In this document: positions 16,512 to 57,560 of the stretch, in pieces
Position numbering within the stretch: the first letter of the stretch is position 1
Layout of the letters: each line of letters starts with the position of its first letter
Translations under genes and position numbers: made by a program
NCBI GenBank assembly: GCA_022780025.1
Contig: JALEXS010000022.1
Location: 1,256-65,255 of the forward strand
DNA: 64,000 nucleotides
Reading direction: 5' to 3'
DNA from: Mollicutes bacterium
GTDB taxonomy: Bacteria; Bacillota_I; Bacilli_A; RFN20; CAG-826
The notes under the pieces: generated by a model
Seen by the model: only the letters and a program-made list of their open reading frames with translations
Told to the model about the DNA's origin: nothing
The model's database searches: none

Positions 16512-16751
16512 AATTCAATTTAATGTCTAGACTGATATTATACTATATATAAATGCTAATTAAAAATATAAAAATACATTGTACAAATGTTTTATTCTAC
16601 ACAAACATTTTTAATAAGAATTTCCAATTTTTAATAATATTAATTTTATTATTTTAAATTTAAATTTATTAAATATAAAATATAAAAAATTAACAAAATA
16701 TTTGAGTTTTGCATTGTTTTTACTAAATTTAAGCCGTTTTTCGAAATTAAA

Positions 16752-16780
16752 AAGAGAACTCATAAAGAGTTCTCTTTTAA
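16752..16780 (-). terminator. Rho-independent terminator downstream of the alcohol dehydrogenase gene.
   Basis: Inverted repeat AAGAGAACTC-ataaa-GAGTTCTCTT flanked by A and T runs. Confidence 0.5.
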
Positions 16781-16811
16781 AAAAATTGATATTTTTAGAA
16801 GGCAAACTTAA

Positions 16812-17957
16812 TTACATTAATTTTTCAAAAAGTTTAATAACTTCTTCTTTAGTTGCTTCTTTTGGATTGCCTGGATAGCAAGCATCTTTAAGAGCATCGC
16901 TAGCAAGTGATTCTAAATCTTCTTTTAAGATTTTTTCACATTTTGTAGGAATACCAACATCTACAGATAATTTCTTAACAGCATCGATTGCAGCTTGGCG
17001 ATATTCTTCTTGAGTCATATTTGTAGTATCAACGCCTAAAGCTTTAGCTATATCATTATATTTAGTACCTGTACATTCCTTATTAAATTCCATAGAAATT
17101 GGAAGAAGCATAGCACAAGCAACACCGTGTGGAATATCATAATATGCAGATAATGTATGAGCCATAGCATGATCAATACCTAAACCGACATTAGAGAATC
17201 CCATACCAGCAATATATTGTCCAAGAGCCATTCCTTCACGACCATCAGGATCATTTTGAACTGCTTTTCTTAAATTTTTACCGATCAATTCAATAGCTTT
17301 AATGTGGAACATATCTGACATTTCCCAAGCACCACGAGTAATATAACCTTCAATAGCATGAGTTAAAGCGTCCATACCAGTTGAAGCAGTTAATCCTTTT
17401 GGCATTGAAGACATCATATCTGGGTCAACAATAGCAACTATTGGCATGTCGTGAGCATCAACACAAACGAATTTTCTCTTCTTTTCTACATCTGTAATAA
17501 CATAGTTGATAGTAACTTCAGCAGCAGTACCAGCTGTAGTAGCAACAGCAATAATTGGTAAACATGGTTTTTTAGTAGGAGCAACGCCTTCTAAAGAACG
17601 AACATCTGCAAATTCAGGATTTGTAATAATAATACCAATTGCTTTAGCAGTATCCATTGAAGAACCACCACCAATAGCAATAATGCAATCAGCTTTTGCT
17701 TCTTTACAAGCTTTTACACCACTAGTTACATTTTCAATAGTTGGGTTAGGTTTAATGTTTGTATATAATTCATAACTAACGCCACCTTTATCTAATAAAT
17801 CAGTAACTTTCTTAGTAACTCCAAATTTAACTAAATCAGGATCACTACAAACTAAAGCTTTCTTAAAACCATGAGCTTTTATTTCAGGGACTATGTTTTC
17901 GATAGCACCATGTCCGTGATAAGAAGTCTCATTTAACATAAATCTTTTTGATGACAT
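16812..17957 (-). CDS. Iron-containing (group III) alcohol dehydrogenase.
   Basis: GGGSSMDTAKAI motif, metal-binding His residues (HAMAHTL...H) and ~380 aa give full-length Fe-ADH architecture (FucO/BdhA-like). Confidence 0.85.
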   Translation of the reverse strand: MSSKRFMLNETSYHGHGAIENIVPEIKAHGFKKALVCSDPDLVKFGVTKKVTDLLDKGGVSYELYTNIKPNPTIENVTSGVKACKEAKADCIIAIGGGSSMDTAKAIGIIITNPEFADVRSLEGVAPTKKPCLPIIAVATTAGTAAEVTINYVITDVEKKRKFVCVDAHDMPIVAIVDPDMMSSMPKGLTASTGMDALTHAIEGYITRGAWEMSDMFHIKAIELIGKNLRKAVQNDPDGREGMALGQYIAGMGFSNVGLGIDHAMAHTLSAYYDIPHGVACAMLLPISMEFNKECTGTKYNDIAKALGVDTTNMTQEEYRQAAIDAVKKLSVDVGIPTKCEKILKEDLESLASDALKDACYPGNPKEATKEEVIKLFEKLM

Positions 17958-18237
17958 ATTTAAATCCTCTCTTCTTAAATATTATAAAATAGTAGAAATG
18001 AGAATTAAATAATTTTATATAAATAAAATCGCATTTTGAAAAAGAGAATGGAATTTTTTCAACCTCGTTTTCATTAAGTAAAAAGGTAGCAATATAAACT
18101 TATTATAAGTGTTATTTAAGCATTAAACACTATTAATAAATTTAAGTTTTTTTGTATTTTAAAAAGTTTATATTTGATAATTCTATATTGAAAAAACTCA
18201 TTATTTTTATTAAAAACTACGTAAAACTCAACTATTT

Positions 18238-19005
18238 TTATAAATTTTCAATTTTAATGTTAAAATAATCAATAAGAAATCTTGCAACACCATCATGATC
18301 ATTATCGTATTTTGTAATATATTTTACCTTTTCTTTTAAGTCTTCTTTAGCATTACTTAATAATACACCAACGCCTGCTTCTAATATCATGTTTAGATCA
18401 CCAATATCATCTCCAAAGCATATTACATCATTTATATTTCCATTAATTAATTCCATTAATTTCTTGTTACCATTTTCTTTACTTGTTGTCTTTAAATTAA
18501 ATCTTCCGAATCTACCATCTAAATAAGGTATAAATAATAAATTAAAATCATCAGCAATTTTATAAGCTTTATTATTATCTATAAAAGAAGCAACAATTTT
18601 ATAACTTTCTTTATTCAAATCATCATTAAAATCAAAATATTTAGCATTTTGAGATATATAATTCTTATCACTACTAAATAATTCAGTTAATGTATAAATC
18701 GAAAACGTTTTACTTTCTTTTAATAAAATCTTAGATATTTTATTAATCGTATCTTTTGATATAACTTCCTTATAAAGAATATTTTCATCTTTATCCATAA
18801 TTAAAGATCCGCCAAATAAAATAGAATAATCTGGTTTAATAATATCAAAATAAGGTTTATTAAAATCTTTACTTCTAGCAGTATTTACTACAATTTTATA
18901 ACCATAATTATTTCTTAAATAATTTAAAACCTTTAAAGTAAAAGGAGTTACTTCTTTATTAGAATTTAAAATAGTATCATCAACATCAAATATTATATAT
19001 TTCAT
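18238..19005 (-). CDS. HAD-superfamily Cof-type phosphatase (HAD-IIB).
   Basis: N-terminal DxD motif MKYIIFDVDDTIL and a C-terminal GDDIGD motif. Confidence 0.7.
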   Translation of the reverse strand: MKYIIFDVDDTILNSNKEVTPFTLKVLNYLRNNYGYKIVVNTARSKDFNKPYFDIIKPDYSILFGGSLIMDKDENILYKEVISKDTINKISKILLKESKTFSIYTLTELFSSDKNYISQNAKYFDFNDDLNKESYKIVASFIDNNKAYKIADDFNLLFIPYLDGRFGRFNLKTTSKENGNKKLMELINGNINDVICFGDDIGDLNMILEAGVGVLLSNAKEDLKEKVKYITKYDNDHDGVARFLIDYFNIKIENL

Positions 19006-19007
19006 CT

Positions 19008-20042
19008 TTAAATTACACTTTTATTAAATTTTATATTATTTAATTTAATAATATCGCTCGCTTTATCTTCATTAATAAAATCTCTCATAATAATATTTAT
19101 TAAATGAAAATAATCACTATCTTTTAATATATTAATATATTCATTCATATTATCATTATGACTTCTTTCTTTATTATAAGGACCAAATATTAATTTAGTA
19201 TCAGTTAACTGACCTTGTAAAACAAATAAGCCCTTGAAAGATGTCTTATCTATTTTATTTTTAATTAAATCTATATATGTTGGTAATCCTTTATTAATAA
19301 ATTCCTTACTATTCATTCCATGATAATCCTTATAATAATAAGAATCTAAAGAAGCATCTAAATGCGTACCTAAATCATCATTCCTTTTAAATATATGTGG
19401 ATTATCAATAGTATATTTAGAATTATCACCAAATAAAAATATACATTTACCTCGACAATCTTTTATTTTTAAGTTTGATATAAATTCTAAATCTTTAATA
19501 TTTTTATCATTAGTAATAGCATAATCAGAAAATAAATCATTTATTCTTTTTAAAACATATTCTTGTGAATTATTTTTAAAATGTTGAAAATCTAAAATTA
19601 ATGTCTCGGTTGTATTAGTTTTTATAAAATCTAATAAATCAAAAAGAATAGGTTCAAACTCAACTCCATTAAAAATTGAGTGATATATTTTATATTTATC
19701 CTTAACTTTATTAACTCTTAAATCAAAATATCTTACACCTCTTTCTAATTGTTCTTTTATTGTTAAATACTGTGTTTCGCCTAAATAAGACATTCCATAT
19801 GTCCCAGAATCATGACTTCCTGGAATAATAACTTCATTTAATAAAGTTTCATCATCGATATTTTTCATCCATGAATTTAAATTAGTATTTTTAATAGGTT
19901 CAGTCTTTAAAAAACAATTTCCTTGTATACAAAATCCACCTATAATTACACCAAATGTAATTAAAATAGAACTTATAGTAATTAAAGTTATTTTTAAACG
20001 TCTCATTATTAATATGGTATAGGTTAATCCTTTTAAAAACAA
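19008..20042 (-). CDS. PI-PLC X-domain-containing protein (phosphatidylinositol-specific phospholipase C-like) with an N-terminal membrane anchor.
   Basis: IIPGSHDSGTYGM and RYFDLRV match the PI-PLC X-box catalytic region. The track start at 20042 is a TTG; an internal ATG (MRRLKI..., 20007) is the alternative start. Confidence 0.55.
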   Translation of the reverse strand: MFLKGLTYTILIMRRLKITLITISSILITFGVIIGGFCIQGNCFLKTEPIKNTNLNSWMKNIDDETLLNEVIIPGSHDSGTYGMSYLGETQYLTIKEQLERGVRYFDLRVNKVKDKYKIYHSIFNGVEFEPILFDLLDFIKTNTTETLILDFQHFKNNSQEYVLKRINDLFSDYAITNDKNIKDLEFISNLKIKDCRGKCIFLFGDNSKYTIDNPHIFKRNDDLGTHLDASLDSYYYKDYHGMNSKEFINKGLPTYIDLIKNKIDKTSFKGLFVLQGQLTDTKLIFGPYNKERSHNDNMNEYINILKDSDYFHLINIIMRDFINEDKASDIIKLNNIKFNKSVI

Positions 20043-20142
20043 CTTTATTTTAATTACTTTTATATATAATGATTAAATATTGTAATATTTATCTTATAGA
20101 ATAAAAAAAGACCTGAATTAATCAGATCAATATCTCACAAAT

Positions 20143-20217
20143 GGTGGGCAGTATAGGGCTCGAACCTATGACCTTCTGTACGTCAAACAGATGCTCTCCC
20201 AGCTGAGCTAACTGCCC
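20143..20217 (-). tRNA. tRNA-Val (anticodon GAC).
   Basis: A cloverleaf folds by hand: acceptor GGGCAGT/ACTGCCC, anticodon loop TTGACGT, T-loop GGTTCGAGCC, encoded CCA. Confidence 0.85.
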
Positions 20218-57199: not shown

Positions 57200-57241
57200 C
57201 ACGATTTATCTAATAAATTTTCAAAAATTAAAAATATCTAT

Positions 57242-57270
57242 TTACAAGACACCCTGTTTATGAGTATAAT
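57242..57270 (+). promoter_or_regulatory. Sigma70-type promoter for the tRNA-Asp/tRNA-Phe pair (-35 TTACAA, 17 bp, -10 TATAAT).
   Basis: The tRNA-Asp 5' end lies 13 nt after the -10. The intervening sequence is ATTAAGCGC. Confidence 0.5.
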
Positions 57271-57283
57271 TATTAAGCGCGAC

Positions 57284-57358
57284 GGACCAGTGGTGTAGCG
57301 GCTAACATGTCACTCTGTCACAGTGAAGATCGCGGGTTCGATCCCCGTCTGGTCCGCC
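57284..57358 (+). tRNA. tRNA-Asp (anticodon GTC).
   Basis: Acceptor GGACCAG/CTGGTCC, anticodon loop CTGTCAC, T-loop GGTTCGATCCC, CCA encoded. Confidence 0.85.
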
Positions 57359-57374
57359 AAACTTTTAAAAAATT

Positions 57375-57450
57375 GGCCCGATAGCTCAGCAGGTAGAGCA
57401 AAGGACTGAAAATCCTTGTGTCCCCAGTTCGACCCTGGGTTGGGCCACCA
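57375..57450 (+). tRNA. tRNA-Phe (anticodon GAA).
   Basis: Acceptor GGCCCGA/TTGGGCC (G.U), anticodon loop CTGAAAA, T-loop AGTTCGACCCT, CCA encoded. Confidence 0.85.
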
Positions 57451-57468
57451 TCAAGTTAATTATTGTAT

Positions 57469-57493
57469 GAAGACTAATAAGTCTTCTTTTTTT
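57469..57493 (+). terminator. Intrinsic terminator after tRNA-Phe.
   Basis: GAAGACTaataAGTCTTC followed by TTTTTTT. Confidence 0.6.
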
Positions 57494-57520
57494 ATAAAAA
57501 GTCTTCCAAACTCAATTAAA

Positions 57521-57560
57521 AATTAAAAAATCACTTCTAGTTTATTCAACTGAAGTGATT
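57521..57560 (-). terminator. Intrinsic terminator after the aminopeptidase gene.
   Basis: AATCACTTC-loop-GAAGTGATT, with a T-run on the minus strand. Confidence 0.5.

Follow-up and report, generated by a model that had tools for sequence, protein, structure and literature searches.

What is the short AT-rich sequence that recurs between the genes of an uncultured gut bacterium, and what keeps it the same? The question is raised by a 64,000-nt stretch of a Mollicutes bacterium of the RFN20 lineage (assembly GCA_022780025.1, contig JALEXS010000022.1, positions 1,256 to 65,255), referred to here in its whole length as the window. Its G+C content is 27%, and its minus strand carries almost all genes. 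An original prediction, made from the letters of the window, described a dispersed repeat family with a 15-mer core (AAAACTCAAYTATTT), found only in intergenic DNA and mostly next to terminators. The family exists at most of the places listed, but its core, strand and extent need correcting: in the minus-strand reading the true form of the motif is AAAAATARTTGAGTTTTGCAGGGTTTTT, a site of 28 bp with A/T tracts alongside it in helical phase. The motif is best explained as a signal in duplex DNA that is read by a putative protein, or conceivably by an RNA-guided complex, rather than as an RNA element, a promoter, part of a terminator or a mobile repeat. As to what kind of signal, our tentative preference is for a cooperative binding site of a predicted sequence-specific DNA-bending protein.

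The Repeat Family and Its Anatomy

As a descriptor of the family, the 15-mer core shows no enrichment by itself. With up to two mismatches it matches the window 8 times where 4.7 matches are expected, and 13 of 100 shuffled sequences give at least as many. Aligned on the minus strand, opposite to that of the core, the listed copies yield a longer common word, which describes the family better. The pattern TTGAGTTTTN5GTTTTT occurs four times exactly and eight times with at most two mismatches (1.9 expected; 0 of 100 shuffles reach 8), and the 26-mer core at up to four mismatches has eight window copies where 0.6 are expected. Chance similarity between AT-rich sequences is ruled out by these shuffles and by Markov controls. 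Candidates in the window were ranked by gapped-alignment score relative to 3000 null 45-mers from a Markov model, which leaves nine confident copies in 64 kb and about five weaker ones, two or three of all these lying inside genes; the full copies divide into four on the minus and five on the plus strand.

Five of the eight loci listed in the original prediction are robust (16695–16716, 18190–18240, 28454–28474, 33405–33427 and 52972–53019), 57494–57524 is moderate (p ~0.001) and 50905–50930 borderline, while 49045–49075 does not stand (p = 0.24). Gapped alignment likewise gives no support to a candidate at 59140–59165.

The logo of 102 copies reads aTTTTnnAAAAATA[G/A]TTGAGTTTT[G/a][C/a]A[g/a]GGTTTTT-nnnn-AAAw-nnnnnn-gTTTTt. 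It describes an asymmetric 28-bp site in which two invariant blocks, AAAAATARTTGAGTTTT and GGTTTTT, stand around a 4-bp spacer that drifts between lineages (GCnn in some genomes, AARR in others). The site has neither dyad symmetry nor terminal inverted repeats. Two G-TTTT elements lie one helical turn apart within it, one of its strands is almost free of C, and A/T tracts at logo positions -8..-5, -2..+4, 11–14, 21–25, 30–32 and 41–44 recur with a period of ~10 bp. A degenerate copy of block 1 is found family-wide at +30/31 (z 6–8) and more weakly at -29/-30 (z 3). These are the tandem units that had been noticed at 18190 and 52972, which are real and stand 31 bp from the main unit, albeit weak (p ~0.003).

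Distribution Across Genomes

A pattern with 20 specified bases (AAATANTTGAGTTTTNNNNNGTTTTT) was used to scan one genome per species and returned at least 116 stretches. About 100 of those listed come from approximately 24 low-GC metagenome-assembled genomes (MAGs) of one clade, whose members are named Candidatus Onthovivens (Bacillota, Bacilli), “uncultured Mollicutes” or “uncultured Bacilli”; the best-sampled of them hold 8–13 stretches each among the matches listed. The rest are single matches in unrelated phyla. The search in related genomes that the original prediction had suggested thus finds the word in at least ~24 species-level genomes. A metagenome scan with a stricter pattern added 33 further stretches, while the same pattern met one chance match only in 2.9 million viral contigs, and INPHARED phage and PLSDB plasmid records held nothing meaningful. 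A phage or plasmid origin is ruled out by this near-absence. A literature search for the sequence itself, across 8 million papers, found no description of the word.

Further copies surround those by which the related loci were found. At one, two, three and four mismatches they number 26, 27, 24 and 32, against 0, 0, 1 and 3 in a Markov control, some of the one-mismatch extras being seeding copies that differ at one added core position. Copies in related loci occur at ~1 per 5–10 kb (~1 per 7–10 kb for the unseeded ones), and a genome may perhaps hold a few hundred sites (100–300). A contig of the MAG GCA_028723005.1 (uncultured bacterium) is 100% identical to the window over the stretch compared. 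Contigs L001–L006 belong to the same species (98.5–100% identical) and are uninformative.

Conservation of the Word and Turnover of Its Positions

Genomes that share only 34–60% identity in their proteins carry one and the same word. The orthologues in loci L215 and L240 show this inside a gene: the proteins are 48% identical, and the motif agrees at 30 of 32 nt (~94%) while the flanking codons, saturated with changes, agree at ~40%. At the motif position of a more distant orthologue, in L214, stands an unrelated sequence of equal length, with no indel. Similarly, the motif is present in L192 and missing from its 60%-identical orthologue in L135, again without an indel, and in an IspD-like gene it occupies the same place in two species.

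Positions between genes change. Copies occur in L199, L166 and L211 at places where the syntenic DNA of the window has none; the one in L166 occupies a spacer of 55 nt, which measures 1 nt in the window. In L191 (93% identical) the copy at 52993–53020 is kept while its downstream flank has diverged. The syntenic locus in L244 (59% protein identity) shows copy turnover, with only a decayed look-alike at the fucO–RDD spacer and no clear copy in 15 kb. Intergenic copies come and go between species while the word itself stays constant. The constraint acts on the DNA itself.

These comparisons bear on the idea of a miniature selfish repeat, spread by transposition in the manner of a miniature inverted-repeat transposable element (MITE) or a repetitive extragenic palindrome (REP), or by gene conversion from a motif-specific nick. 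The family is multi-copy and mostly extragenic with a REP-like preference for gene 3' ends, the intergenic copy in L166 amounts to an indel of ~50 nt relative to the window, and inverted copies stand on either side of some single genes (the window's fucO and one in L149). Coding copies, on the other hand, substitute existing codons and leave the length unchanged, a drifting selfish element would change where this word is constant, and inverted pairs occur in both relative arrangements. The motif has no terminal inverted repeats, hairpin or target-site duplication, and no transposase or RAYT gene recurs nearby. We regard such a repeat as quite improbable. A MITE or REP is rejected for want of a hairpin, a target-site duplication, terminal inverted repeats, indels in coding copies and a linked transposase, and the suggestion of a miniature mobile repeat is disfavoured with it.

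Genomic Context and Orientation

Context was measured in 100 loci of the clade (731 kb; genes by a simple open-reading-frame (ORF) caller). Intergenic regions have 1.36 copies per kb where the genes are co-directional, 1.35 where they converge and 0.75 where they diverge, and coding DNA has 0.032, these densities being relative and not absolute. Intergenic DNA is thus ~40-fold denser in copies than coding DNA. In co-directional regions, 30, 10 and 7 copies fall into successive thirds counted from the upstream stop codon. Approximately 15% of copies (20 of 132) lie inside long ORFs, 16 antisense and 4 sense, a split in line with the 3:1 ratio of ORFs on the two strands. The claim that the family is restricted to intergenic DNA therefore fails in related loci and in the window alike, where copies lie inside genes at 46168–46195, at 1602–1629 and, weakly, at 43188–43215. 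Close inverted pairs are rare and occur in both relative arrangements. The outcome named in advance as refuting the family, no excess and no positional bias, is contradicted by the very large excess of the redefined motif; the only positional bias favours gene 3' ends and disfavours promoters and coding DNA, and relative to terminators there is none.

Orientation is indifferent to the genes. In co-directional intergenic regions 27 copies point with the genes and 28 against them, and the downstream gene is on the same strand for 38 copies and on the opposite strand for 40. This speaks against a site that would modulate neighbouring genes, be it the operator of a global transcription regulator or a place where RNA polymerase docks. 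Such a role is improbable, even though the F strand (ATTTTnnAAAAATAR-TTGAGT) resembles an UP element followed by a -35 box, some copies stand 9–24 nt upstream of start codons, and direct G-TTTT repeats 10 bp apart are like the sites of tandem winged-helix regulators. The match to a -10 box is no better than in the control (mean 3.65 vs. 3.50 of 6; at least 5 of 6 in 13% vs. 15%). Copies cluster at the upstream stop codon, have half the density in divergent regions and occur also in convergent regions and in genes. The neighbouring gene families are mutually unrelated. A sigma-70 promoter with UP element is rejected, as no conserved -10 hexamer follows 16–18 bp past the -35 box and no orientation is preferred. 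Look-alikes of sigma-54, ECF-sigma, LytTR, ComK-box, CodY, CtsR, hix and dif/Xer sites were compared by eye with the known sites and misfit in spacing or key bases.

The same indifference argues against an element acting as RNA, be it a 3' untranslated region or leader, a small RNA or an accessory of intrinsic terminators. In its favour, the window copies at 33.4, 53.0 and 57.5 kb lie 10–12 nt past terminator T-tracts, which bears out the reported position next to terminators for several window copies. For the family it does not hold: a terminator-like hairpin lies within 60 bp of 18% of 94 intergenic copies in related genomes, compared with 22% of random intergenic positions. The core forms no hairpin either, its mean folding energy being -0.5 and 0.0 kcal/mol on the two strands and weaker than that of shuffled sequence. 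Copies occur in both orientations relative to transcription and antisense inside genes, and no Rfam family matches them (a window scan at gathering threshold returned only tRNAs and a fluoride riboswitch). An RNA element is accordingly very improbable, an intrinsic terminator or its accessory is rejected, and neither a “structured” element nor a “terminator-associated leader”, as had been suggested, is retained. In one lineage (L176, L206, L222 and L235) a terminator-like hairpin with a T-run, AAGATGTTTT...AAAACATCTT, has as its 5' arm the second half of the motif, AAGATGTTTTT. Association with tRNA genes was rejected as well, since copies are not enriched near them relative to random intergenic positions.

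A Signal in DNA and Its Putative Reader

Both orientations are used, there is no hairpin, -10 box, target-site duplication or terminator bias, and coding copies arise without indels; the signal therefore lies in the DNA itself. The word is near letter-perfect throughout the clade, even inside genes, and therefore some putative protein, itself conserved and specific to the clade, reads it. Of the candidates in the original prediction it is the “protein-bound site” that fits, being consistent with DNA-level conservation in both orientations and inside coding sequence and with the phased A/T tracts.

What we tentatively propose is a cooperative site at which at least two subunits of a putative DNA-binding protein would line up along one face of the helix, bending or wrapping ~50–80 bp. 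The G-TTTT pair one turn apart, the phased tracts over 50–80 bp, the secondary units fixed at 30 bp and a preference for 3' ends that recalls REP/BIME and RIB elements all point to an architectural site, and the layout would resemble that of IHF-type architectural proteins, one half carrying an A-tract and the other TCAA-N4-TT. Sites would be kept at ~1 per 5–10 kb where they do least harm, that is, at gene 3' ends before divergent promoter regions and far before coding DNA. This grading of density by tolerance suggests a density-dependent, chromosome-wide role, for example in the architecture of the nucleoid or as topological punctuation that separates transcription units, rather than control of particular genes. 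The clade DNA sampled contains one gene of the HU/IHF family (DNABII), a divergent one (L212, 2160–2426), whose product has the DNA-inserting arm GTSPLNGE instead of the usual GRNPxTGE.

Several points weigh against this proposal. Not one of 127 copies fits the canonical IHF consensus (WATCAANNNNTTR), so that a canonical IHF site is rejected and only the layout of TCAA-N4-TT and A-tract is shared. The motif is unusually rich in information, whereas the sites of known architectural proteins are usually degenerate, and a position-independent drive would account more simply for letter-perfect coding copies across distant orthologues. The copy distribution suits an uptake-sequence model equally well. 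Moreover, each clade locus is an 8-kb tile chosen for holding a motif copy, which makes the densities relative, and its gene positions come from a crude ORF caller. The architectural reading rests on sequence comparison, and its binder is putative.

The uptake-sequence model holds that the motif is a tag of self-DNA: a receptor of a competence pilus would prefer tagged DNA, and biased uptake and recombination would spread the motif wherever it is tolerated. This is possible, though unlikely. It would account for the asymmetric core with AT-rich segments in helical phase, the lack of orientation bias, the clade-wide conservation with lineage “dialects”, the occasional close inverted pairs and the turnover of positions under a constant word. 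The under-representation of copies in coding DNA, where they are nevertheless present at poorly conserved residues and without indels, and the finding that 2.9 million viral contigs and the phage and plasmid collections are virtually free of the word also agree with it. Conversely, the density is 5–10 times below the ~1 per kb of genomes with known uptake sequences, the conserved core of at least 22 positions in two blocks is far longer than an uptake core of 9–12 bp, and secondary units at a fixed offset of 30–31 bp are not expected. The competence proteins of Escherichia coli (HofB/PilB, HofC/PilC, PpdD, YcaI/ComEC and Smf/DprA), standing in for PilB/ComGA, PilC/ComGB, a pilin, ComEC and DprA, had no tblastn match in ~1.0 Mb of clade DNA where ~2–3 would be expected if all genomes had them, a weak point given distant queries and a small sample. 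The literature on competence in RFN20 yielded nothing useful, and we know of no sequence-specific uptake in any Gram-positive bacterium.

Copies in the Window

The copies of the window are collected in Table 1. Two of them, inverted relative to each other (16694–18239), bracket a gene for a fucO-like lactaldehyde reductase (16812–17957), and a small hydrolase gene in L149 is bracketed by inverted copies in the same way. Such bracketing of single genes may be accidental or may hint at exchange in the manner of cassettes.

Table 1. Motif copies in the window. Scores are those of gapped alignment; daggers mark copies absent from the original prediction; the nine rows without the word weak, moderate or borderline are the confident copies.
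Position	Strand	Sequence	Location	Support
1602..1629†	+	ATAAATAACCGACTTTTGCAGGGTTTTC	antisense inside endonuclease I gene	score 34
16694..16721	+	CAAAATATTTGAGTTTTGCATTGTTTTT	intergenic, downstream of fucO-like gene, inverted relative to genes	full copy; exact TTGAGTTTTN5GTTTTT, 1 mismatch to 26-mer core
18191..18208	-	AAAAATAATGAGTTTTTT	31 bp downstream of 18212–18239	weak second unit, block 1 only; score 23, p ~0.003
18212..18239	-	AAAAATAGTTGAGTTTTACGTAGTTTTT	begins at stop codon of HAD-hydrolase gene	full copy; confident
28447..28474	-	TAAAATAATCGAGTTTTGCAGGTTTTTT	intergenic, hypA / rnfC operon	score 42, 2 mismatches
33398..33425	-	AAAATAAATTGAGTTTTGCAGTGTTTTT	convergent intergenic region	exact 20-mer match
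40872..40900†	+	AAAAATAGTGACTTTTAGCAGGGTTTTTT	intergenic near tRNA-Glu	two single-base indels; score 40, reached by 0 of 3000 null 45-mers
43188..43215†	+		antisense inside Glu/Gln-tRNA synthetase-like gene	weak; score 26, p ~0.001
46168..46195†	+	TAAAAGAGCTGAGTTCTGCAAGGTTTTT	antisense inside NERD-domain gene	score 38, 3 mismatches
50903..50932	-	AAAAATAGTTACTAGTTTT		borderline relative, block 1 only; score 23, p ~0.003
52972..52989	-	AAAAATAGATAGTTTTTT	31 bp downstream of 52993–53020	weak second unit; p ~0.003
52993..53020	-	TTAAATAGTTGAGTTTTAAAGGGTTTTT	just after terminator, ~200 bp upstream of tRNA operon	best window copy; 0 mismatches to core
57496..57523	-	ATTTTTAATTGAGTTTGGAAGACTTTTT	between two convergent terminators	moderate; score 26, p ~0.001, 2 mismatches to 20-mer
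59237..59264†	+	AAAAATAATCAAGTTCTGCAGGGTTTTA	abuts stop codon of solute-binding-protein gene, inverted relative to genes	score 38

Other Features of the Window

A second, smaller set of boxes is associated with iron transport. Clusters centred on GTTAAC (AGTTAACT, GGTTAACTT) flank the feoA–feoB operon at 53080–53170 and 56170–56260 and adjoin the gene of an iron-dependent repressor of the DtxR/MntR family (56272–56652), whose operators they probably are. The exact 8-mer of the box occurs five times in the window (2.2 expected), three of these in the two spots flanking feo. Directly after feoB, an unannotated small ORF (53180–53340, minus strand) encodes a Cys-rich single-pass membrane peptide resembling the FeoB-associated Cys-rich protein; a further such peptide is encoded inside the rnf operon (23724–23931, minus strand).

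The codon CGG is used 0 times among the 18,404 codons of all 51 minus-strand genes of the window, compared with 92 for CGT and 368 for AGA, and the window contains no tRNA-CCG gene. Reassignment of CGG from Arg to Trp has been predicted in Onthovivens (PMC13092985, 2026). The tRNA genes present include an operon of five on the minus strand (52331–52777) with three tRNA-Met(CAT), Ser and Ala, one or two of its CAT tRNAs being presumably initiator or tRNA-Ile2. Close by, a fluoride riboswitch (Rfam RF01734, 44.7 bits; 52209–52280, minus strand) lies upstream of a cation/proton-antiporter-like gene (50947–52182) and not of crcB. At the other end of the window, probable surface or secreted nucleases (an endonuclease I with InlB B-repeat domain, an SNase-domain protein and a Big_2 protein) stand beside ABC transporters at 1111–7563, an arrangement that suggests nucleic-acid scavenging, typical of reduced genomes.

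Significance

Words that are constrained at the level of DNA throughout a genome are rare, and the cases that are understood have revealed basic machinery: the uptake signal sequence (USS) and the DNA uptake sequence (DUS), Chi in recombination, the FtsK-orienting polar sequences (KOPS) that orient the chromosome, and REP and IHF sites. The motif described here is unusually long and sharp and spans a whole uncultured gut lineage of reduced genomes. There is a real chance that the machinery behind it is new. It is conceivable, if doubtful, that the motif represents the first self-DNA tag of the uptake-signal type outside the Proteobacteria, a 28-bp word that biases uptake or recombination to kin DNA in Mollicutes-like gut Bacilli, or equally the site of a new nucleoid protein with a few hundred near-identical sites per genome. 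The latter, if true, would add a form of chromosome organisation as yet undescribed in bacteria. The reader protein would reveal either that minimal Gram-positive genomes have an architectural or topological system of a new kind or that sequence-specific uptake extends beyond the two proteobacterial families known for it. In practice, the motif can serve as a marker that assigns metagenomic contigs to the clade and flags foreign DNA in its genomes.

Comparison With Known Systems

Nearly every distributional property published for USS and DUS matches the motif (PMC1626085; PMC2817400; PMC3630211). As in the USS of Pasteurellaceae, AT-rich segments spaced at about one helical turn follow an asymmetric core, hundreds of copies occur in both orientations, the word is family-wide with subclade variants, and copies are under-represented in genes, where they are present at poorly conserved residues (PMC1626085; PMC2817400). 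The motif differs from USS in being 5–10 times sparser, in a core more than twice as long and in two blocks, in its secondary units at ~30 bp and in its hosts, which are gut bacteria of a low-GC Gram-positive lineage. With the DUS of Neisseriaceae it shares a lineage-specific word with dialects that is mostly intergenic and absent from foreign and mobile DNA (PMC3630211). DUS, in contrast, measure 10–12 bp without flanking tracts, occur at ~1 per kb and often form inverted pairs acting as terminators, whereas the motif forms no hairpin and seldom occurs in close pairs.

The REP elements and bacterial interspersed mosaic elements (BIMEs) of enterobacteria, together with the RIB/RIP elements that contain IHF sites, occur hundreds of times as short extragenic sequences, concentrated where transcription units have their 3' ends, and are bound by IHF and gyrase. 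The motif resembles them in its many short copies favouring gene 3' ends. REPs fold as imperfect palindromes into hairpins, lie strictly outside genes and are associated with RAYT transposases; the motif, unlike them, has no dyad symmetry or hairpin, is found also inside genes (20 of 132) and is conserved far beyond the species level. Rickettsia palindromic elements (RPE) are in-frame insertions of 100–150 bp that add residues to proteins. The motif is likewise a repeated DNA word inside protein-coding genes which does not destroy them, but its coding copies leave protein length unchanged.

True IHF is a proteobacterial heterodimer, and its lambda H' site has the A-tract in the same register relative to TCAA as the motif. 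IHF sites such as lambda H' are asymmetric, longer than 25 bp and composed of a half with an A-tract of 4–6 bp and a half with TCAA-N4-TT (10.1101/382655), a description that applies to the motif too, whereas its most conserved bases, CCTGCAAAAC, lie outside any IHF consensus. The motif belongs with the genome-wide DNA words, USS/DUS, REP/BIME and Chi, but differs from each of them in a tested defining feature.

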